Assembly (NCBI GenBank): GCA_049521175.1
Contig: JBEKPB010000012.1
Span: 3,929 to 67,928 of the forward strand
Length of the DNA: 64,000 nt
Source of the DNA: Candidatus Limnocylindrales bacterium
GTDB taxonomy: Bacteria; Chloroflexota; Limnocylindria; Limnocylindrales; CSP1-4
Direction of reading: 5' to 3'
Each line of letters starts with the position of its first letter. Position 1 is the first letter of the stretch. The notes under the pieces were generated by a model. That model was not told the origin of the DNA, ran no database searches, and worked only from the letters and a program-made list of their open reading frames with translations. Below, piece after piece: positions 1 to 9,676 of this stretch. A program made the position numbers and the translations under genes.

Positions 1-576
1 TACGTGGACGTTCGCGAGGCGATCCTGAGCCTCTCGACGCCTGTGCCATCCGACCGGGGAGTGGTTGCAGCCCTCGAGGAGTACGCGGCCCTGTACGCCG
101 AATCGTCAAAGCTTGCGGTCAGGTTCCAGGCCAGCGCCGAGGCTGCCAGGGCTCAGCTGTCGGCAGCGGTCCAGGCGGAGATCTTCAGCATCGCCCGCGA
201 AGCCCTGACCAACGTCCGCAAGCACGCCCGCGCCCAGCGCGTGAGCGTGACCTTGGCCGTCGAAGAGGGCGGGATGGTGCTGCGCATCCAGGACGACGGG
301 GTCGGCTTCGAGGCCGAGCTGCTCGCGACCGGACCGGAGCGGTGGCCGCACTTCGGTCTGGCGGGCATGCGCGAGCGAGCCGAATCGGTCGGCGGGCGGA
401 TCACCTGGCGCAGCCGTCCCGGCGCCGGCGCCCTGGTCGAGCTACATGTTCCTGTGGGAAACGACCCATTGACCTACCCACTCAATAGAGTTGCTTCGTC
501 CGGTGAGACGGAGCATCCTGAAGCGCAGCATCAGGCGGTCCGATCGCCCGCTGCGGCCGCAACGGAGGCAGACTGA
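1..576 (+). CDS. Sensor histidine kinase, NarX/DesK (HisKA_3) type; C-terminal part only, 5' end outside the window
   Basis: HATPase motifs EALTNVRKHA, IQDDGVGF, GLAGMRER and PGAGALV; NarL-type regulator directly downstream. Confidence 0.92.
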   Translation, partial: YVDVREAILSLSTPVPSDRGVVAALEEYAALYAESSKLAVRFQASAEAARAQLSAAVQAEIFSIAREALTNVRKHARAQRVSVTLAVEEGGMVLRIQDDGVGFEAELLATGPERWPHFGLAGMRERAESVGGRITWRSRPGAGALVELHVPVGNDPLTYPLNRVASSGETEHPEAQHQAVRSPAAAATEAD

Positions 577-580
577 CGCC

Positions 581-1276
581 ATGAGAACTGTGCTCGTCGA
601 TGACCATGCGCTCTTCCGTGACGGGGTCGCATCGCTGCTGCTGGCGTGGGGCCACGAGGTAGTTGGCCAGGCCGCCGACGGCGCCGCGGCCGTGGAAATC
701 GTGGACGAAACGTCGCCGGACGTCGTTCTCATGGACGTTCGCATGCCAAACGTGTCCGGTCTGGAGGCCACGGCCAGGATCAAGGAGCGCCATCCTGAGG
801 TCGCCATCGTCATGCTGACGGTGAGCGAGGATGAGGCGGACCTCTTCCGCGCTATCAAGGCCGGCGCTCAGGGTTACCTGCTCAAGAACCTGGAAGCGCC
901 GCAGCTGCGATCGATGCTCGAAGGGGTCGCCCGCGGGGAGCCTGCGATCACTCCGGCCACGGCAGCCCGGATCATCGACGAGTTCCTCAGGACGCCAGGC
1001 GGAACGCCTCAGACGAACCAGCGCCTGACCGATCGCGAGATCGAGGTTCTGCAGCTCGTCACGGCAGGCCAGCGCAACCGCGAGATTGCCAGCGAGCTCG
1101 GGATCAGCGAGAACACCGTCAAGTTCCACCTCAAGAACATCGTGGAGAAGCTCCACGCGCAGAACCGGGCCGAGCTGGCCGCTCGGGCGGTACGCGAGGG
1201 GCTGGTGCCTGACCTTCCGCGCGACGGGTCCGCCCACGAGCGACCGCGCCACGATCTGTCGTATCGCCGCCGCTGA
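581..1276 (+). CDS. NarL/LuxR-family response regulator
   Basis: REC domain (VLVDDH, LMDVRMP, GYLLK) plus LuxR HTH (LTDREIEVL...NREIA...TVKFHLKNI); ATG 581 after GGAGG. Confidence 0.95.
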   Translation: MRTVLVDDHALFRDGVASLLLAWGHEVVGQAADGAAAVEIVDETSPDVVLMDVRMPNVSGLEATARIKERHPEVAIVMLTVSEDEADLFRAIKAGAQGYLLKNLEAPQLRSMLEGVARGEPAITPATAARIIDEFLRTPGGTPQTNQRLTDREIEVLQLVTAGQRNREIASELGISENTVKFHLKNIVEKLHAQNRAELAARAVREGLVPDLPRDGSAHERPRHDLSYRRR

Positions 1277-1472: not shown

Positions 1473-3485
1473 ATGGGCTACCGGATCCAGATCGAAAACG
1501 CGGGTTGTTTGAACTGCGGCGTCTGCATGGACGTCTGCCCGGTTCAGGCCCTCGACATGAGCCGGCCTCAACGGCCCGGGGTTGAAGGAGCCGGAGTCTT
1601 CGGCAAACCCTTCGACTGGATGATGGAGTACCCGCTCCAGGTCGGGGAGTGCATCGGCTGTGGGATCTGCGTCCGCGAGTGCCCGACCCACGTCGTTCTC
1701 CTCGACGGCGTTGCCGGCGCGACCCCGCTGGCCTCTCGCCAGGGCCCGATCAACCGGCCCGCCGAGCCGGCGCCCGCCTGGCAGCCGCTCAGCGAAGTCA
1801 CCAGCGAATCGCTCAAGCCGGCCCGCGTCTCACCGTGGGGCCATCTGTTCCAGTGGAACGTCAGCGAACGGCCCCAGGACTGGCAGGTCTGGCGGTCCAT
1901 GGTGACCGACTCTCGCGTGGATCCGATAGCCCCGTGCCAGGAAGCCTGCCCCGCCGGGACGGACGCCGGTCGGTACGTCGGCCTCATCGGCCAGGGCCGG
2001 TACGACGAGGCCTACGCCGTCGCCGCGGAAGTCAACCCATTCCCGTCCGTGTGCGGATGGATCTGCACCGCTCCGTGCGAATCGGCCTGCCGGCGCGGCA
2101 CCCTCGACGAACCGATCTCGATCCGGCGGCTGAAGCGTTTCGCTGCCGAGCAGGGCAAGCTGCCCCCCGTCGCTTCCCCCGCAAAGCGGTTGAACAAGAA
2201 GGTGGCGATCGTGGGCGGTGGACCGGCCGGCATGTCGGCCGCGTACTACCTGGCCAGGCTCGGATACACCGTCACCGTCTTCGAGGCGATGCCGGTGCCG
2301 GGCGGAATGATGGCCATCGGCATCCCCGAATACCGCCTGCCGCGAGTGGTTCTGCGCGAGGAGATCGACCGCATCGTCGGCCTCGGCGTGGAGCTCAAGC
2401 TCGACAACGCCATGGGCCGCGACTTCACCCTGGCGGATCTCGAGTCCAAGTACGACGCCATCTTCCTGGCCACGGGCGCTTCGCGAAGCCGCAAGCTTGG
2501 GGTGCCGGGCGACGGCCTGCCGGGCGTGGTTCCCGCGACGTTGTTCCTCAAGCAGGTCAACCTCGGCGAGAAGCCGTTCATCAAGGGTGCGGTCGTCGTC
2601 GTCGGCGGTGGCAGCACAGCCATGGACGCGGCCCGATCGGCTCTCCGGTCCGGTGCCTCGTCGGTGACGGTTCTCTATCGCCGCGGCCGGGCCGAGATGC
2701 CCGCCCAGTCCGAAGAGGTCGAGGCCGCCGAGCACGAAGGCATCAAGATCCTGTTCGAGGCTGCCGTAACCGAAGTCAAGGGCACCGACAAGGGCGTGAC
2801 CTCTGCCAGGTACCTGAGTCAGCGCCCGACCGGCAGGTTCGAGGGCGGGCGTGCGGTCTACGAGCCGATCCCCGGCAGCGATCGCGCCATCGACGCGGGG
2901 ACGGTCATGGTGGCCGTCGGCGAAGAGCCCGACCCTTCCATCCTGCCCCCCGGTGCCGGTATCGAGACGAGCGGCTTCTCCGGGATCGTGGCGGACTCCG
3001 GCCTGGCTACCGGTCGCAAGGGCGTCTTCGCTGGAGGCGACGTCGTTTCGGGCGCCAAGACGATCATCCATGCCGTCGGCGCGGGTCGCCGCGCCGCCGG
3101 TTCGATCCACGAATACCTCTCCGGCAGCAAGAACGGCGAGGCCGAGATCATGGCCAGCGTCCGGGTGCCCAAGGCTCCCGAACCGGTTCTGACCGTAGAC
3201 CTGGCCACGCGGCCGCGCGTCGGCATGGAGTTGCCGGCCTACACGCCTGGCTCCTTTGCCGCCACGCAACCGAGCCTCGAGCCGGCCGCGGCAAGAGCGG
3301 AAGCGTCGCGCTGCTTCCGGTGCGATGCCGTGTACCGCTGCGAGACCGTGCATGTCCAGTCGGGGCGCGGGCCGAGGGACGGCCCAGGTGCCCAGCCCAA
3401 CGAACCACCGCCGGCGGTTGGCGGCCGGCCCAATCTCGCCGCTTCGGCGAGCACTCCTCCGTCGATCTCAGGAGGTCGCGACTGA
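1473..3485 (+). CDS. FAD/NADP(H)-dependent Fe-S oxidoreductase (GltD/NfnB/SudA family) with an N-terminal 2x[4Fe-4S] ferredoxin domain
   Basis: CLNCGVCMDVCP and CIGCGICVRECP; APCQEACP and CGWICTAPCESAC; GGGPAG FAD motif; GGGSTAMD...LYRR NADP-type motif; C-terminal EASRCFRC. Confidence 0.88.
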   Translation: MGYRIQIENAGCLNCGVCMDVCPVQALDMSRPQRPGVEGAGVFGKPFDWMMEYPLQVGECIGCGICVRECPTHVVLLDGVAGATPLASRQGPINRPAEPAPAWQPLSEVTSESLKPARVSPWGHLFQWNVSERPQDWQVWRSMVTDSRVDPIAPCQEACPAGTDAGRYVGLIGQGRYDEAYAVAAEVNPFPSVCGWICTAPCESACRRGTLDEPISIRRLKRFAAEQGKLPPVASPAKRLNKKVAIVGGGPAGMSAAYYLARLGYTVTVFEAMPVPGGMMAIGIPEYRLPRVVLREEIDRIVGLGVELKLDNAMGRDFTLADLESKYDAIFLATGASRSRKLGVPGDGLPGVVPATLFLKQVNLGEKPFIKGAVVVVGGGSTAMDAARSALRSGASSVTVLYRRGRAEMPAQSEEVEAAEHEGIKILFEAAVTEVKGTDKGVTSARYLSQRPTGRFEGGRAVYEPIPGSDRAIDAGTVMVAVGEEPDPSILPPGAGIETSGFSGIVADSGLATGRKGVFAGGDVVSGAKTIIHAVGAGRRAAGSIHEYLSGSKNGEAEIMASVRVPKAPEPVLTVDLATRPRVGMELPAYTPGSFAATQPSLEPAAARAEASRCFRCDAVYRCETVHVQSGRGPRDGPGAQPNEPPPAVGGRPNLAASASTPPSISGGRD

Positions 3486-4117
3486 TGGATTCCGCAGCAT
3501 TCGGCGCAGCCGAGCAGTTCGTCGAAGGGACGATCGCCGCCGCCCTGGTAGCCCTGTGGCTGCTCGCCGTCGCACTGCACCTGGCGAGGCCCTATATGCT
3601 CGCCCTGACCCGCAAGTTCACCCTACGGCTCGGCGCCGACCTGTGGTGGACGATCTACGTCGGGATGCGAGACATCTTCCTTCTCCAGGTCTTCCTGGGC
3701 AGCTTAATCTTCTTCTACCCGGACGTCGTCAAGAACAACGATCTGCCGATCACCGGCGGGTTGGCGGCGGTCTTCGCTTTCGGGGCGCTGCTGCTCAAGC
3801 TGATGACCAGGGCCGATGCCGACCCGCGCAGCTTCAACGCCCAGACGTTCCTGATCGGTGCCGGCGCGACCCTGTACCTGGTGCCGTATCTCCTCGGGAC
3901 GCAGGTCACGACCGTGGGCAGCAGCATCTCCAACCAGCTGGCCTCCGTCCTGGTCAGCTCGCAGAACCAGACGATCGCCCTTGCACTGTGCTACCTGTCC
4001 GGCTTCCTCGTGGGGGTCATGGGTCTTGTAGCCGTCTTCTACAACCTCCGTCTTGCCGGGTCGGCCCCGCGCAAGAGCGATGCCGGCGCTGCCTCCCAGC
4101 CCGCGGCCCAGAGCTAG
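3485..4117 (+). CDS. Uncharacterised integral membrane protein (~5 TM), paralogue A
   Basis: TGATG coupling to the upstream gene, AGGAGG RBS, hydrophobic helices, clear similarity to the next ORF. Confidence 0.85.
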   Translation: MDSAAFGAAEQFVEGTIAAALVALWLLAVALHLARPYMLALTRKFTLRLGADLWWTIYVGMRDIFLLQVFLGSLIFFYPDVVKNNDLPITGGLAAVFAFGALLLKLMTRADADPRSFNAQTFLIGAGATLYLVPYLLGTQVTTVGSSISNQLASVLVSSQNQTIALALCYLSGFLVGVMGLVAVFYNLRLAGSAPRKSDAGAASQPAAQS

Positions 4118-4126
4118 GAGATCACC

Positions 4127-4753
4127 ATGTCTGACCAGCAAGCTTTCGTCCAGGGCGCGCAGTACTGGCTGATCCTGTCGGTCGCGGCGATACTGCCGAT
4201 CCTGTGGGCCTTCACCCTGGCGCTCCACTTCGCCCGCCCGTACGTCATTCGCTATCTGCAGGGCCTGACCCTGCGGTTCGGCGGCGACGTATGGTGGCTC
4301 AGCTACGTCCTGATTCGCGACGGCCTGCTCGTCGTGACCTTCGCCCTGAGCGCCATCTTCCTCTTCCCGAACGTCTACATGAGCGCCGACCTGGCCGTGC
4401 CGATCACGGCTCCGATCGCGGCGCTTGTGCTCTTCTGGGCGCTTCTGGCCAAGCTGACCGGCGATTCCGACGACGACCCGAAGACCTTCCGCATCGTCTC
4501 GGTGCTCCTCGTGGTGGCATCGATGCTCTACATCATTCCGCAGATATACGGCGTCGAGGCAGGCGACCAGGTGGACTCTCTCAATTCGATCGCCAACCTG
4601 GGCGGCATCCCCGGCGCCCTGGTCAGCGGCTCGAACCCCAGCCTCTCCTATCCGATCCTGAACCTCAGCCTTCTTGGCTTTGCGGCCACGGGTGCCGTCA
4701 TCTTCTTCTGGTTCATGAGCAAGACCAAGTTCGAGGCGGCCGATATCGCGTAA
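4127..4753 (+). CDS. Uncharacterised integral membrane protein (~5 TM), paralogue B
   Basis: AGGAG RBS; shares LHxARPY...TLRxGxDxWW..YV..RD motif with the previous ORF. Confidence 0.85.
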   Translation: MSDQQAFVQGAQYWLILSVAAILPILWAFTLALHFARPYVIRYLQGLTLRFGGDVWWLSYVLIRDGLLVVTFALSAIFLFPNVYMSADLAVPITAPIAALVLFWALLAKLTGDSDDDPKTFRIVSVLLVVASMLYIIPQIYGVEAGDQVDSLNSIANLGGIPGALVSGSNPSLSYPILNLSLLGFAATGAVIFFWFMSKTKFEAADIA

Positions 4754-4786
4754 CCGGCGAACCAGTCACTCGCTGCATACGCACAG

Positions 4787-4818
4787 GGACCGCCGCTCTT
4801 CGGAGCGGCGGTCCTTCT
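4787..4818. terminator. Perfect 12-bp hairpin with a cUUCGg loop between convergent operons
   Basis: GGACCGCCGCTC-TTCG-GAGCGGCGGTCC followed by only a short T tract. Confidence 0.7.
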
Positions 4819-4847: not shown

Positions 4848-5741
4848 TTAGCGGTGCGGGCGATCCCGATCGATACCGCGCATGCCGGTCGGGATCCCCG
4901 TCGCGGCGGCCTCGTCCACGATCCAGATCGCGCCGGTCCGGCGAGTGCGCTGGACCGGCCAGCGGCGGCCGTCTCTGACCTCCCCGAACACATGACCGAT
5001 CGCCTCGGCCTTGGCCGTGCCGTAGGTAACGACCAGAACCGGCGCCGCTTCGAGGAGCCGCGGATTGATGGTCACGCGCGGCAAATGCGGCCCGATGTGT
5101 GCCGGCGCCGGCACGCCCATCGTCCAGGCCATGCTGTCCAGCGCCGGCGAACCCGGGAAGCACGACAGCACGTGACCGTCGTTGCCTACACCGACAAGGA
5201 TGAGGTCGAAGGCCGGCCAATTGCCCTCGACGAGCGGCAGGTGAGCGGCGAGCTCCTCTGCGTATCGGGCCGCGCACCAGTGGGTGTCTCGGTATTCGGC
5301 GAGGGCGCGGTCCGTCGGGAAGGGGTGGATGTTGGCCGACGGCACGGGTGCGCCGCCGGTCGATCCCGCGCCACCGAGCAGAACGTCATCGAAGGAGCTG
5401 ACGCACGACTCGGGGTGGCCGCGGGGCACGAAGCGGTCGTCGCCCCACCAGACGTGGACGTTTGCCCAGGGGATCCGATCTACCAGGGGCGACTGCGACA
5501 GAAACCGGTAGATCGGGATCGGCGTGTTGCCGCCGGTCGTGCAGAAATCGGCCCGACCGCGCCTGTCGACGGCGGCGACGAGCGCCGCCGCGATCATCTC
5601 AGCCGCCTCTCGGGCCGCATCGTCCGGGCTCGCGGCCACAACGATTTCGGGTTCGCCTTTGTTGGGAGCAGGCAGCGCAGCGACCGTCGTGCCGGACATC
5701 ACCTCGGCCCGCGGCGCGAGGTCAGGCTCCTGCTCGCTCAT
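4848..5741 (-). CDS. pgl: 6-phosphogluconolactonase
   Basis: TGGNTP, WWGDDRFVP and GVGNDGHVLSCFP motifs; zwf/opcA context. Confidence 0.93.
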   Translation of the reverse strand: MSEQEPDLAPRAEVMSGTTVAALPAPNKGEPEIVVAASPDDAAREAAEMIAAALVAAVDRRGRADFCTTGGNTPIPIYRFLSQSPLVDRIPWANVHVWWGDDRFVPRGHPESCVSSFDDVLLGGAGSTGGAPVPSANIHPFPTDRALAEYRDTHWCAARYAEELAAHLPLVEGNWPAFDLILVGVGNDGHVLSCFPGSPALDSMAWTMGVPAPAHIGPHLPRVTINPRLLEAAPVLVVTYGTAKAEAIGHVFGEVRDGRRWPVQRTRRTGAIWIVDEAAATGIPTGMRGIDRDRPHR

Positions 5742-5782
5742 TGTCCTGGCTCCTGTACCGGGCGGGTGGGTCCGATCCTGAA

Positions 5783-7105
5783 CTAGCCGTTGCCCCGGTC
5801 CTCGAGTGGCCGCCCGGCGTTCTGCCGCGCCTGCCCGTTGGATCCGGCCTTGTGAGAACCCGAATCTACGCCTAGAAGTCGATGGGCCATGGCCAGCGCG
5901 CCCACCGCGACAGGGTCGGAGGCACCTTCCTCCACGGCACGAGCCAGAAGATCGACGTCGGAGAGGCGTGGCGCGGCATAGCTGCGCCGGATCCGCTCGC
6001 GGCCGTCGTCATACACCGATACGTTGACGGTCCGATCGTCGGCGGCAACCCGGCCGATCAGTTCCGCGCCGCGCAGTCGGGACGTTATCTCCACCCGAGC
6101 GGTCGAGCCCGGCCCGAGATCGGACGAGACAGGCCGCAGGACGACCTCCACCGCGTGGTCCCGCTGACGCAGAGTGGCGAGCCGCCGCCCGCGCTCGGCC
6201 CGGCTCAGCGGAGCGACCACGGTCATCCCCAGTCGCGACGCCAGCCAGGCGACGTGGTAGAGCGGCCGGACCACGTTGGTCGTCCAGCCTGGGTCTCCCG
6301 GAGCGGCTGCGGCGTAGTCCACGTCGATGCGGCGGACCGCCCCGAGATGCGGCCGCAAGTCCGGCAGGTCGTACATGGATGCCATGGCCTCGCGCCACCG
6401 GGACTGCCGAAGCAACGCCCAATCCGCGACCACCAGGCGGCGCTCTTCGGCGACCACCGCCAGCTTGTCCAAGAGGTCGAGGCCGTCACCGGACCAGTCC
6501 GACCCGTCGACGATCAGCCGGTCGGCGATGGGCAACAGGCGATCGGCCCGATGGGTGCCGAACGGCGGGTCGTTCGGCATCCACATCGCGACGGGGAGAT
6601 CGTGCACGAGCAGCGGCACGATGATCGAAGCCAGGTGGTTGCCGGTCTCGCCCCGTGCCGTGACGTAGATGGTCTCGGCCCCGGTCTCGGCTCGGCCGTC
6701 GGCCGTGGTCAGCGACAGCGCCTCGATCCGAGCCTCGATACCCGCTGCCCCCCCGGTATCTTGTGCGGAGAGGATCAGCGACCGTGATGCGTGGCGGCTG
6801 GCCGTCGCGGTGATGGTGGCCGCGCACCGCTCCGCCGTGCGGCTGTCGCCGGCCAGCACGACCAGGTTCAAAACGCTGGTGCGGGCCGCGACGTGGTGGG
6901 CGGCGGCATCGATCGTCTCCCCGGCGGCGGCCAGCGAGGCTGCGGCTCGAGCCGCAGCCTCGGCCTGGGCGGCGACCAGCGCCACCTCGGCCTTCGCCGC
7001 TTCGGCCCTGGCGACGGCGGCGCGGGCCCACAGCTTGCCCAGCTGGCCCTCGATCTCCGAGACGGAGCGGGCCAGTGGACGCGGCGCGGTCAGATCCTTC
7101 GCCAC
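5783..7105 (-). CDS. opcA: Glucose-6-phosphate dehydrogenase assembly protein OpcA
   Basis: PLLVHDLPVAMW, RLIVDGSDW, DWALLRQSRWRE and WLASRLG; directly after zwf; GTG 7105 chosen as start. Confidence 0.88.
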   Translation of the reverse strand: MAKDLTAPRPLARSVSEIEGQLGKLWARAAVARAEAAKAEVALVAAQAEAAARAAASLAAAGETIDAAAHHVAARTSVLNLVVLAGDSRTAERCAATITATASRHASRSLILSAQDTGGAAGIEARIEALSLTTADGRAETGAETIYVTARGETGNHLASIIVPLLVHDLPVAMWMPNDPPFGTHRADRLLPIADRLIVDGSDWSGDGLDLLDKLAVVAEERRLVVADWALLRQSRWREAMASMYDLPDLRPHLGAVRRIDVDYAAAAPGDPGWTTNVVRPLYHVAWLASRLGMTVVAPLSRAERGRRLATLRQRDHAVEVVLRPVSSDLGPGSTARVEITSRLRGAELIGRVAADDRTVNVSVYDDGRERIRRSYAAPRLSDVDLLARAVEEGASDPVAVGALAMAHRLLGVDSGSHKAGSNGQARQNAGRPLEDRGNG

Positions 7106-8718
7106 CGTCTGCCGTCCCGTTCCATCAGCTCGTCGGCCGGCTCGGGCCCCCACGATCCGGCGGCGTAGTTGGGGAAATGCGGCGCCTGCATCTCGGACCA
7201 GGCGTTGATGATCGGCGTGACCACGGCCCAGGCGGCCTCGACCTCGTCCGATCGGGTGAACAGCGAGGCGTCGCCCAGCAGCGCGTCGAGGATCAGCGTC
7301 TCGTAGGCGTCGGGCGAGTCGACCACGAATGACGTGTCGTACGCGAAGTCCATGTTTACGGTCCGTACGTCCAGACCCAACCCCGGCACCTTGGCCGCGA
7401 AGCGGAGCATGATCCCTTCGTCGGGCTGGATACGCATCGCCAGGACGTTGGGCGTGGGGTCGCCGGCGGACTCACGGAAGAGTCGCAGTGGCGTCTCCTT
7501 GAACTGGATGGCGATCTCGGTAGCGCGCTTCGGAAGTCGCTTGCCGGCGCGCAGGTAGAACGGGACGCCGCTCCAGCGCCAATCGTCGATCTCGAACCGG
7601 CCCGCGACGTAGGTCTCGGTCTCGGACTCCGGATCGACCTCGGGCTCCTCGCGGTAGCCGGGGGCGGGCTCGCCCTGGACCCAGCCGGGGCCGTATTGAC
7701 CGCGGACCACGTTCCGGCGGACGTGCTCGGCGTCCGGGGCCGCGATCGCCCGCAGGACCTGGAGCTTCTGGTCGCGCAGCGCATCGGCCTGGAACGAAGA
7801 CGGCGGCTCCATCGCGACGAGGGTCATCAGCTGCAGGAGGTGGTTCTGGAGGATGTCGCGGCTGGCGCCGGTTTCCTCGTAGAAAGCGCCGCGGTTCTCG
7901 ACGCCGATCGATTCGGCCACTGTGATCTGGACGTGGTCCACGAAACTGCGATTCCAGACCGGTTCGAAGATGCCGTTACCGAACCGGAAGACGAGCAGAT
8001 TGCGGACGGTCTCCTTGCCCAGGTAGTGGTCGATGCGATAGACCTGCGATTCGCGGAAGACCTTGTTCACCTCGTGGTTGAGGTGGCGGGCCGATTCGAA
8101 GTCGCGTCCAAACGGCTTCTCGACGATCACGCGCCGCCAGCCCGCCCCGCGGACCTCGTGGTCCAGCCCGACACGGCCAATCTGGCGCACGATCTCGGTG
8201 ACCTGCGAGGGCTGGGTTGCGAGGTAGAAGAGCCGGTTGCCGGCCGTGCCGCATTTCGCGTCGAGCCTGTCCAGCGCCTCGACCAGCCGGTCGAACCCGG
8301 CGTCGTCCGAGAAGTCGAGCTGCTGGTAGGTGATTCGCTTGGCCAGCTCGGACCAGGAGGCTTCGTCTATCGGCTGGACTCGGGAGTACTTCTCCAGCGA
8401 GGCCCGCAGCTCCGCTGCGAACGCCTCGCTGGAATACGGCCGGCGAGCGACCGCGACCAGGCTGAATTCGGCAGGCAGCAGGTTGGTGCGCCACAGCTGG
8501 TAGATCGCCGGCACGACTTTGCGATGGGCGAGGTCGCCCGTGGCACCGAAGAGGACAAAGGCGCACGGATCCGGCACCCGCTCCAGGCGGAGCCCCTGCC
8601 GGAGGGGGTTGACGTCGGCGTCGGACCGCGCGCGTCGACGGGCGGCCGTGGCCGCCTCGCGGAGCTGGCGTGCGGTGCGGGCCGGGGGTGGCGCGCTGGG
8701 CGCTCGAGGTGGGCTCAT
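7090..8718 (-). CDS. zwf: Glucose-6-phosphate 1-dehydrogenase
   Basis: GATGDLA, EKPFG, RIDHYLGKE and QNHLLQ. Confidence 0.97.
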   Translation of the reverse strand: MSPPRAPSAPPPARTARQLREAATAARRRARSDADVNPLRQGLRLERVPDPCAFVLFGATGDLAHRKVVPAIYQLWRTNLLPAEFSLVAVARRPYSSEAFAAELRASLEKYSRVQPIDEASWSELAKRITYQQLDFSDDAGFDRLVEALDRLDAKCGTAGNRLFYLATQPSQVTEIVRQIGRVGLDHEVRGAGWRRVIVEKPFGRDFESARHLNHEVNKVFRESQVYRIDHYLGKETVRNLLVFRFGNGIFEPVWNRSFVDHVQITVAESIGVENRGAFYEETGASRDILQNHLLQLMTLVAMEPPSSFQADALRDQKLQVLRAIAAPDAEHVRRNVVRGQYGPGWVQGEPAPGYREEPEVDPESETETYVAGRFEIDDWRWSGVPFYLRAGKRLPKRATEIAIQFKETPLRLFRESAGDPTPNVLAMRIQPDEGIMLRFAAKVPGLGLDVRTVNMDFAYDTSFVVDSPDAYETLILDALLGDASLFTRSDEVEAAWAVVTPIINAWSEMQAPHFPNYAAGSWGPEPADELMERDGRRWRRI

Positions 8719-8770
8719 CGGGCGGTCGCCCCGAGGGTCGGGAGTGGATTCGCAGCTGTGTCGATCATGG

Positions 8771-9676
8771 CTACTCGGTCTTCACGGCGTGACCGCCGAA
8801 CTCGTTGCGGAGCGCCGCCAACACCTTAGCCTGGTAGCTGTCCTCCTGGCGCGATCGGAACCGGTTGAGCAGGCTGAGGGTGATGACCGGCGCGGGGACG
8901 TCCCGGTCGATGGCCTCCTGAACTGTCCAGCGCCCCTCGCCCGAGTCCGCTACCCAGCCCTTGAGGTGAGCCAGTTCCGGGTCCTGCGAGAATGCCGAGG
9001 CGGCAAGCTCCAGGAGCCATGACCGCACCACCGATCCGTGCATCCAGAGGTCGGAGATGGCCGCCACATCGAGCTTGTACTCCGAAGCGTGGAGGATCTC
9101 GAAGCCCTCGGCGTAGGCCTGCATCAGGCCGTACTCGATGCCGTTGTGGACCATCTTCACGTAATGCCCGGCACCCGGGCCGCCCGCGTGGAGGTAGCCG
9201 TCCGCCGGAGCCAGCGAGCGGAAGATCGGCTCGAGGCGTTTCACGGGCTCGGGCTCGCCGCCGACCATCAGGCAATACCCGATCTCGAGGCCCCAGATCC
9301 CGCCCGACGTCCCGGCGTCGATGAAGTCGAGGCCGGCCGAGGCGATTTTGTCGTGGCGGCGGACGGTGTCGTGGAAGTTGCTGTTGCCGCCGTCGACGAT
9401 CGTGTCTCCCGGCTCCAGGACCTTCAGCAGCTCGTCGATCATGGACTCCGTGGCGTCTCCGGACGGGACCATGACCCACACGGCACGCGGCCGTTCGAGC
9501 TTCCCGACGAGCTCCTGTAGCGAGAAGGCGCCCTCCGCTCCCTCGGCCATGATCTCGCGGGTCTTCTCGGCGGTCCGGTTGTAGGCGACGATCCGGTGCT
9601 TGTCGAGTAGCAGGCGGCGGACCATGTTGGCGCCCATCCGGCCGAGTCCGACGAAGCCCAGGTCCATCTGCGTCAC
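8771..9676 (-). CDS. gnd: 6-phosphogluconate dehydrogenase, decarboxylating (short YqeC/GntZ type)
   Basis: GLGRMG, DGGNS, GHYVKMVHNGIEYG and RNEFGGH. Confidence 0.95.
   Translation of the reverse strand: MTQMDLGFVGLGRMGANMVRRLLLDKHRIVAYNRTAEKTREIMAEGAEGAFSLQELVGKLERPRAVWVMVPSGDATESMIDELLKVLEPGDTIVDGGNSNFHDTVRRHDKIASAGLDFIDAGTSGGIWGLEIGYCLMVGGEPEPVKRLEPIFRSLAPADGYLHAGGPGAGHYVKMVHNGIEYGLMQAYAEGFEILHASEYKLDVAAISDLWMHGSVVRSWLLELAASAFSQDPELAHLKGWVADSGEGRWTVQEAIDRDVPAPVITLSLLNRFRSRQEDSYQAKVLAALRNEFGGHAVKTE

Follow-up and report, generated by a model that had tools for sequence, protein, structure and literature searches.

A candidate membrane redox module of Chloroflexota: a ferredoxin-fused NAD(P)H flavoprotein encoded together with two paralogous proteins of an unnamed membrane family

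In a number of respiratory enzymes a ferredoxin-type subunit sits on cofactor-free membrane subunits that provide a quinone site, as in PsrB/PsrC, NrfC/NrfD, DmsB/DmsC, FrdB/FrdCD of Escherichia coli and NuoI/NuoH, and anchors made of two paralogues also exist (FrdC/FrdD, ActC/ActF). The locus described here is compared with this design. It lies in a stretch of 64,000 nucleotides, called the window below (G000:C12:3929-67928, contig JBEKPB010000012.1), from the 2.84 Mb, 94% complete genome of a Candidatus Limnocylindrales bacterium (Chloroflexota), and consists of three genes that encode an iron-sulfur flavoprotein and two membrane proteins, Mem1 and Mem2 (Table 1). Close homologues of its proteins, at 85-93% identity, come under the same organism name. 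An earlier note on this DNA had proposed that the three products form a membrane-bound oxidoreductase. Positions refer to the window unless a genome (G) or locus (L) handle is given.

The best solved matches to the flavoprotein are 9n5u_A, 9bov_A and 8oh5_C (E = 3e-106, 3e-101 and 2e-89), which are the NfnA subunits of two NfnABC enzymes and StnC of StnABC, and which align with its residues 143-560 or 143-625. According to one report, NADPH binds beside the FAD of the NfnB-like domain in NfnABC, and the electrons are relayed singly through [4Fe-4S] clusters (PMC11829005; see also PMC12018979 and PMC10482914). Like NfnA (Bfu family) and StnC, the flavoprotein combines Fer4_20 with FAD and NAD(P)H folds and carries a C-terminal RC..C motif, its C614-C623 stretch aligning with the corresponding stretch of these proteins. 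NfnA and StnC, however, are 963-1178 aa long, begin with a 2Fe-2S domain, contain a formate-dehydrogenase-like domain and have soluble NuoE/F-like B and C subunits, whereas the flavoprotein has 670 aa, begins with a dicluster ferredoxin, has no formate-dehydrogenase-like domain and no B or C genes at its locus, and is accompanied by two membrane proteins. It does not have the architecture of an NfnA or StnC subunit, only residues 143-625 being alignable; a different paralogue, on contig C2 of the same genome, does.

The superfamily and the cofactor set (Fer4_20 plus Pyr_redox_2) are also those of GltD, of NfnB in NfnAB and of SudA, to whose superfamily the further PDB matches belong (4ylf, 5jca, 6s6s and 2vdc, E = 1e-82 to 1e-59). 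Pfam placed the dicluster ferredoxin at residues 5-74, Fer4_20 at 153-227 (E = 1.1e-16) and Pyr_redox_2 at 242-538 (E = 1.1e-38), that is, Fer4_20 with two [4Fe-4S] clusters and, behind it, the Rossmann folds for FAD and NAD(P)H, the arrangement characteristic of GltD/NfnB/DPD-type Fe-S flavoproteins. In contrast to GltD, NfnB and SudA, the flavoprotein has the additional N-terminal ferredoxin, scores below the curated cut-offs, and stands in an operon without GltB or NfnA/SudB. Every NCBIfam match remained under its cut-off: the best, PRK12771 (‘NAD(P)-binding protein’), reached 470.1 of 516 bits over profile positions 42-519 of 566, TIGR01316 reached 310.3 of 471.75, and the scores for TIGR01317 (189.8 against 447.7 bits) and TIGR01318 (250.9 against 482.95 bits) show that it is not GltD proper. 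There is no open reading frame (ORF) for a GltB large subunit within or beside the operon, while other GltD-like genes occur elsewhere in the genome; nor is there an NfnA/SudB-type small subunit (FAD plus 2Fe-2S) in the operon, to which the search for NfnA was confined. The cysteines are conserved throughout, 17 of 17 being invariant in 33 orthologues (the N-terminal ferredoxin has eight of them, the Fer4_20 region six and the C-terminal C-x2-C-x5-C three), and the last 35 residues show no conservation in the same set. The description in the earlier note, a ferredoxin-fused GltD/NfnB-type module without its usual partners, is borne out by the Pfam domains, the PDB matches and the content of the operon, and by these comparisons the flavoprotein appears as a new branch of a well-known superfamily.

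The linkage of the three genes was followed through other genomes. The Mem family was found in 37 of 401 Chloroflexota genomes, nearly always as two adjacent copies, and 38 module loci were fetched from this sample. The order flavoprotein-Mem1-Mem2 is kept in 35 of them, with a full-length flavoprotein (identity down to 45%) directly upstream on the same strand; the others have a partial flavoprotein (L040), a ferredoxin only (L048) or no flavoprotein (L053), the last being the second copy in a genome, G320, whose other copy (L073) has one. A scan of metagenome contigs with ectodomain-bearing members of the family gave 80 further loci, 37 with a full flavoprotein, 20 with one that is partial or cut by the contig end, 13 with a ferredoxin only and 10 partnerless at a contig edge; none of the 80 had room for a partner and lacked it. 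Some of the 13 ferredoxin-only loci are possibly truncations on short contigs, and on long contigs the orders Mem-ferredoxin-Mem (L109, L127, L160, L169/L170, L182) and ferredoxin-Mem-Mem (L132, L133) are seen. The linkage noted in a single genome is thus conserved in Chloroflexota and metagenome loci, the reverse of membrane-protein homologues that rarely sit beside the flavoprotein, and, as far as gene order can tell, the three genes very probably work as a functional unit.

Some of the Chloroflexota loci are irregular. The two Mem1-Mem2 pairs of G320 (C2:318194-319408, L053, and C2:332594-333808, L073) lie 14.4 kb apart with identical scores, and the flavoprotein match of L073 is split in two pieces; recent duplication, a repeat in the assembly and decay are possible reasons for the doubled pair. 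Signs of decay are also seen at G233:C1:2200337-2200874 (L070) and G265:C2:48160-48701 (L071), where the Mem2 match is in pieces, one of them with an in-frame TGA, and in G293 (L040), where the flavoprotein match is limited to residues 246-637 and continues into the NarL gene.

In more distant organisms the flavin part is missing and the N-terminal ferredoxin domain remains. The most distant Mem subgroup was used to scan GTDB genome contigs, which gave 35 loci; by record title 26 of these are from Micrarchaeota, Micrarchaeia or Micrarchaeaceae, three from an ‘archaeon’, three from Planctomycetota or Phycisphaerae and one each from Nitrosopumilales, Woesearchaeota and Bacteroidota. None of the 35 has the flavin core. 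A stand-alone homologue of flavoprotein residues 1-143, of about 146 aa and 31-38% identical to them (alignment A4), is encoded in 31 of the 35, on the same strand and at most 400 nt past the end of one or two Mem genes, in many cases with a stop/start overlap; in the others a ferredoxin lies 950 nt off (L099), weak matches lie 0.8-1.7 kb off (L106, L107), or an adjoining 112-aa ORF clusters with the ferredoxin family (L108). The same stripped-down arrangement exists within Chloroflexota, where G110 has a 145-aa ferredoxin, Mem1 and Mem2 without the flavin core, preceded by genes that by eye resemble purA and dnaB. In the complete archaeal genome ARM-1 the neighbours of the cassette are unrelated housekeeping genes (PriX, a beta-CASP nuclease). 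The conserved core is consequently the ferredoxin domain with the membrane protein, the NADPH-flavin part being an add-on of the bacterial form that most of the bacterial loci have, and the earlier designation of the whole flavoprotein as the partner has to be corrected to its N-terminal domain alone.

This domain has two CxxCxxCxxxCP motifs (C12/15/18/22 and C60/63/66/70), invariant in 65 sequences and matched by Pfam Fer4_7 and Fer4, which identify it as a bacterial-type 2x[4Fe-4S] ferredoxin. The motifs are separated by a 37-residue insert that carries LDMTRP..WMME.P.QV, and followed by a C-terminal extension with QGP, LS.YT and PWG motifs that is common to the fused and the free forms. When the domain was modelled alone its core was confident, while residues 90-150 reached a pLDDT of only 50-65 although they are conserved, which is the behaviour expected of an extension that becomes ordered on its partner. 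In structure searches the domain matched generic dicluster ferredoxin domains (FwdF, the PFOR delta subunit, HydB, NdhI/NuoI, PsaC, RnfB), and the weak matches to NdhI/NuoI and PsaC are a point of likeness to the NuoI/NuoH type of arrangement.

It might still be held that the genes are mere neighbours without any joint action, and the binding of the subunits to each other is indeed putative. This explanation is barely credible in view of an adjacency that persists from Chloroflexota families through metagenome lineages to archaea, with the orders ferredoxin-Mem-Mem, Mem-ferredoxin-Mem and Mem-ferredoxin, and of the stop/start overlap in the window.

The two membrane proteins are paralogues, as had been recognised before (36% identity over 192 residues, E = 2e-31), and they belong to a family that none of the resources consulted could name. 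Neither protein matched a Pfam-A family at E <= 0.1 or any NCBIfam model, a profile of 33 Mem sequences found no PDB sequence at E <= 10, and the ESM Atlas returned unnamed Chloroflexota clusters only. The AlphaFold2 model of Mem1 (pLDDT 94, pTM 0.87) has five long helices; Foldseek found nothing for it in the PDB at E <= 0.001 (best TM 0.32), a result that leaves room for a distant fold match. The label ‘unknown’ given to both proteins in the earlier note thus survived Pfam, NCBIfam, the PDB, Foldseek and the ESM Atlas. The family is small: of 1.84 billion cluster representatives 195 match at E <= 0.001, and in a 90% database 1,491 of the 2,715 scored candidates belong to it; among 120 listed homologues those with a name are all ‘hypothetical’ save for one dubious JGI label, ‘MnhF subunit’ (P0117), which Pfam does not bear out. 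Long apparent flavoprotein-Mem fusions in the representative library (P0132, P0180, P0181, P0224) look like frameshifted gene calls in high-GC DNA rather than true fusions. No longer relatives of the archaeal Mem proteins were found in the search made for them, which by the tool’s own grading is weak evidence.

Conservation in the family is strongest on the cytoplasmic face and in helix 2. Mem1 has ten lysines and arginines in loop 1, loop 3 and the C-terminal tail against one in the other loops (counted in the sequence with the helices of the model as reference), and in several homologues helix 1 is preceded by a signal peptide and an ectodomain; these two features place the N-terminus outside and the C-terminus inside. 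In 33 diverse members D52 and R62 never vary, and R35, Y37, R48, A51, W55, D63 and P79 hardly do. The most conserved stretch, R35-P-Y37 ... R48-L-G-A-D52-L-W-W55, spans a cytoplasmic loop and the beginning of helix 2, and the pair R62-D63 lies about ten residues deeper in that helix. The conserved charged or polar residues are E10, E14, T16 and N161 on the outside, R62-D63 in helix 2, and D52, D111 and D113 on the inside, and an acidic DxDxD loop is likewise conserved. The same 33 members have no conserved cysteine or histidine at all, so that a haem or Fe-S site in the membrane proteins is unlikely. The idea of a haem anchor with two histidines as in SdhCD, suggested by a histidine in helix 1 that both paralogues share (H32 in Mem1), was rejected as this residue is glutamine in many homologues, and the idea of a half-NrfD found support neither in Pfam nor in the fold. 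In the earlier note the pair had been described as an anchor or an electron or ion conduit: an anchor, a quinone site or an ion site is compatible with these findings, and the cofactor-carrying electron conduit is not. In comparison with the PsrC, NrfD, DmsC, FrdCD and NuoH anchors, Mem1 and Mem2 are unrelated in sequence and fold and have five helices each, and the proposed donor, at the cytoplasmic face, is an NADPH flavoprotein of fused build.

A pair of proteins without cofactor ligands could be a tether only, which would hold the ferredoxin or flavoprotein for a membrane enzyme encoded elsewhere, e.g., cytochrome bd, a desaturase or a reductase. Besides the missing ligands, such a role would agree with a ferredoxin-and-anchor core that is kept across domains of life while its neighbours change, and with the co-occurrence with cytochrome bd described below. 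Two paralogues would however be unnecessary for it, as would the nearly invariant buried Arg-Asp and surface Arg, Tyr, Asp and Trp that are kept from Chloroflexota to archaea, and a third conserved gene was not found: ORF clustering of the 38 Chloroflexota and 35 distant loci revealed no further gene common to all. A tether is, on this evidence, improbable. Tandem universal-stress-protein (USP) genes flank the module in nine Chloroflexota loci, and DoxX-like genes do so in a few.

The ectodomains seen in some homologues consist of His/Asp/Glu repeats (P0144, P0158, P0161, P0170) or an Ig-like beta domain (P0135, P0139, P0142), and in L109 (7989-10206) both Mem genes have ectodomains and flank a ferredoxin gene, followed by BlaI-, BlaR1-, CcdA- and NrfD-like genes. 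A function in metal handling can be imagined from this, in which a permease pair would act with a cytoplasmic Fe-S reductase of the transported metal, e.g., Fe(III) or Cu(II); the cupric reductase CcoG and MerA/MerT are analogues. The ectodomains of a minority of homologues, the layout of L109 with its BlaI/BlaR-like and CcdA-like genes and the conserved DxDxD loop would all fit. We nevertheless regard it as distinctly improbable, as Mem1 and Mem2 of the window have no ectodomain, no genes for metal resistance or uptake recur beside the module, and no metal-transporter family or fold was matched, the sole Zip match (E = 0.0021) being below the cut-off and located in the N-terminal ectodomain region of P0158.

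The following course of electrons is proposed for the Chloroflexota module. The flavoprotein would oxidise NAD(P)H, most likely NADPH, at its FAD, and the electrons would travel singly along the two [4Fe-4S] clusters of the core and then the two of the ferredoxin domain, which would dock on the cytoplasmic face of a Mem1/Mem2 heterodimer. The cofactor-free heterodimer would be the anchor and would also line, with its conserved Arg-Pro-Tyr, Arg..Asp..Trp and Arg-Asp residues, a membrane-surface pocket in which a lipid-soluble acceptor is reduced, most likely menaquinone that feeds cytochrome bd. In the core the conserved stretch GGGSTAMDAARSALR..LYRR..EMPAQ is kept, which, by comparison with GltD and NfnB, presumably points to NADPH rather than NADH. 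Complex prediction with Mem1 (A6), Mem2 (A5) and ferredoxin residues 1-150 (A4) gave partner scores of 0.18 and 0.16 (mark 0.32) and was not used as evidence. The parts of this scheme differ in strength. An electron wire from NAD(P)H to the membrane-side ferredoxin domain is fairly probable by homology and by the invariant cysteines. The whole path from NADPH over FAD and four Fe-S clusters to the membrane heterodimer, with quinone as the probable substrate, is plausible, with doubt slightly outweighing confidence, and quinone as the acceptor, taken by itself, is a tentative choice derived from co-occurrence and residue type. Quinone is favoured because the Mem proteins have no cofactor ligands, because they have a conserved surface set of Arg, Tyr, Asp and Trp, and because the module is nested within genomes that have cytochrome bd. 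Such residues at the membrane surface are of the kind found in the quinone sites of cofactor-free anchors. The overall reaction would then be common to type II NADH dehydrogenase (NDH-2), Na+-NQR and complex I, which also carry electrons from a pyridine nucleotide to a membrane quinone, and to which the module is unrelated in subunit composition, cofactors and membrane fold.

Cytochrome bd subunit I (PF01654) was detected in 173 of the 401 phylum genomes, namely in all 37 that bear the module and in 136 of the 364 others, a comparison of lists made by eye among related genomes and thus descriptive only; the unpublished genomes G272, G344 and G173 enter the background count only. In family f3 cytochrome bd and the module occur in the same two genomes and in no others, and in family f1 the seven genomes without cytochrome bd are all without the module. 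COX1, present in 55 of 61 genomes of the class and absent from the own genus and one other, occurs independently of the module.

Several points weigh against the proposed quinone reduction. Two of the 37 cytochrome bd matches are weak (G129 and G320, E = 1e-16 to 1e-22), related genomes are not independent, and the link may reflect a shared low-oxygen lifestyle instead of a shared pathway; cydAB was found near the module in only one of 153 fetched loci. Five cassette-bearing archaeal genomes of about 0.8-1.1 Mb contain cytochrome bd in two cases, an SdhA-type Succ_DH_flav_C domain in three and POR_N in one, with none of these in G402, although such metagenome-assembled genomes may be incomplete, and because these enzymes are often missing there a quinone role is not obviously universal. 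No quinone-site family or fold was matched by the Mem proteins, Pfam giving no NrfD/PsrC, DmsC, SdhCD/FrdCD anchors or NuoH and Foldseek nothing above a TM of 0.32. The presumed preference for NADPH follows from a motif (YRR..EMPA) and from homology. Finally, the polar residues on both faces and in the middle of helix 2 (E10, E14, T16, R62, D63, N161) fit an ion path equally well. The single locus with cydAB nearby is G377:C39 (L059:8829-11318), where cydA and cydB follow the module on the same strand at a distance of 3.4 kb, with MurB-like and trehalose-synthase-like genes between.

An ion path is indeed the substance of another explanation, a redox-regulated or redox-driven channel or transporter in which Mem1 and Mem2 would form the path and the ferredoxin domain, poised by NADPH via the flavin core, would gate or drive it; Kv-beta, KefF/KefC and KTN domains are analogues of redox gating. 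The conserved charged and polar residues on both faces and within the membrane, together with the absence of cofactor ligands, would suit such a function, as would the presence of the cassette in very small DPANN genomes, in some of which no quinone-linked enzyme was found, and the two-component regulators that adjoin the module in many loci. Yet a 520-residue FAD/Fe-S enzyme with 17 invariant cysteines would be a costly sensor, electrons delivered to a ferredoxin need a sink, and no channel or transporter fold was matched by Foldseek, so that we hold this explanation to be improbable as well.

If the proposed transfer to quinone is taken together with the distribution of the core, Mem1/Mem2 and the dicluster ferredoxin would be the heart of a very small, so far unrecognised enzyme of respiratory input whose membrane fold is new: in DPANN archaea a ferredoxin:quinone oxidoreductase, which became an NADPH:quinone oxidoreductase in Chloroflexota by an NfnB-like fusion. 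It would perhaps translocate ions through the buried Arg-Asp pair, and would feed cytochrome bd at low oxygen. In this complete form the proposal is more likely wrong than right, yet its chance is substantial.

The coordinates of the locus are collected in Table 1.

Table 1. Features of the three-gene locus and its immediate surroundings, with positions in the window
Feature	Position	Strand	Remarks
Sensor histidine kinase, C-terminal part	4..576	+	Pfam
NarL/LuxR-type response regulator	581..1276	+	Response_reg and GerE (Pfam)
Iron-sulfur flavoprotein, 670 aa	1473..3485	+	Ferredoxin domain, GltD/NfnB-like NAD(P)H/FAD core, C-terminal Cys motif, unconserved tail
N-terminal ferredoxin domain, residues 1-143	1473..1901	+	65-sequence alignment A4; stand-alone homologues
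GltD/NfnB-like core, residues 143-560	1899..3152	+	Fer4_20 with six invariant Cys; FAD and NAD(P)H Rossmann folds
C-terminal motif C614-x2-C617-x5-C623	3312..3341	+	Invariant in 33 orthologues
Mem1, 210 aa	3485..4117	+	Five long membrane helices; unnamed family; stop TAG 4115-4117
Mem2, 208 aa	4127..4753	+	Paralogue of Mem1
G+C-rich hairpin, 14 bp, likely terminator	4785..4816	+	Between convergent operons

All gene junctions given in the earlier note agree with the sequence. The true start of the flavoprotein gene is the ATG at 1473, as the orthologue alignments begin at residue 1, and its stop codon (TGA, 3483-3485) overlaps by one nucleotide with the ATG of Mem1 at 3485 in the sequence TGATG (3483-3487), preceded by AGGAGG at 3470-3475. 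The gap of 9 nt before Mem2 (4118-4126) contains a Shine-Dalgarno-like AGGAG. This arrangement shows that the genes in the window are translationally coupled. The strong hairpin that had been described as closing the operon was confirmed (-38.7 kcal/mol, z -6.6, with 0 of 200 shuffles folding equally well); a simple terminator scan missed it because of its weak T-tail. Beyond it follow, on the opposite strand, the convergent genes of 6-phosphogluconolactonase, OpcA, glucose-6-phosphate dehydrogenase and a short 6-phosphogluconate-dehydrogenase-like protein (pgl, opcA, zwf, gnd-like; 4848-9676, Pfam). The operon itself includes no GltB, NfnA/SudB or dehydrogenase subunits, as the earlier note had it. 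This NADPH-producing pentose-phosphate cluster shares the hairpin with the module; its adjacency to the module is restricted to the own genus and, in part, one neighbouring genus.

Upstream of the flavoprotein gene, and separated from it by a spacer of 196 nt, is the kinase/regulator pair that the earlier note had placed before the operon, which the Pfam domains confirm. The full kinase gene (G000:C12:3086-4504) begins 5′ of the window and encodes two N-terminal hydrophobic helices, GAF, HisKA_3 and HATPase_c; with the Response_reg and GerE domains of the regulator this is a NarL-type two-component system. In the 13 loci of the own class a NarL match lies upstream in 12, with a kinase too in 11, and of the 42 longer metagenome loci 24 have a NarL-like gene no more than a few kb from the module, 18 of them directly beside it, with an OmpR/PAS-kinase pair in place of the NarL system in L109. 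The proposed link to such a regulatory pair is consequently valid for the own class and is not universal. A citrate synthase gene (G000:C12:119-1321, minus strand, locus L189) lies 5′ of the kinase gene on the opposite strand.

The rest of the genome gives some respiratory context. It contains two cydA genes, three NuoH-like genes and complex I genes and has no COX1 match; COX1 was also not found in the four other sampled genomes of the genus, which may respire with bd oxidases only. The complex I operon (G000:C2:139000-153700, L190), with NuoB-, NuoC-, NuoH-, NuoF-, NuoJ- and NuoL/M-type genes, includes a 942-aa ORF that combines a NuoG-type 2Fe-2S N-terminus (Fer2_4), a GltD/NfnB-like Fer4_20/Pyr_redox_2 part and a dicluster ferredoxin/Fer4_Nqo3 end. 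This ORF, which adjoins NuoF, resembles the NfnA subunit of NfnABC and could be an NADPH input or a Bfu-like head on complex I, and the fusion of a GltD-like module into a NuoG-like gene of complex I indicates that the organism uses such modules as inputs to membrane complexes at least once more. A second GltD-like paralogue (G000:C6:47836-49101, L191), 39% identical to the flavoprotein core, lies about 3.7 kb from a NuoH-like gene (C6:52819-53616).

No name, family, structure or paper was found for the Mem proteins or for the three-gene unit in Pfam, NCBIfam, the PDB, the ESM Atlas and the literature, the last being covered by titles and abstracts, so that a description may have been published. 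What is known already is the general design, i.e., an Fe-S wire on cofactor-free membrane subunits; what has no known precedent is the membrane fold, the composition of the module and its distribution over two domains of life, the module being found in Chloroflexota of soil and freshwater and its stripped-down form in DPANN archaea. To our knowledge, the routes by which NAD(P)H or ferredoxin feeds the quinone pool are few and well catalogued, comprising complex I and its relatives, NDH-2, NQR and Rnf. If the proposed function is true, the compact module would be an additional solution to the transfer of electrons from NAD(P)H or ferredoxin to quinone, with a membrane part of no known family or fold, and would help to explain how carriers are re-oxidised in organisms that have no complex I or have an NADPH-rich metabolism. 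The Mem family, with about 1,500 database sequences, would gain a name and a testable partner.

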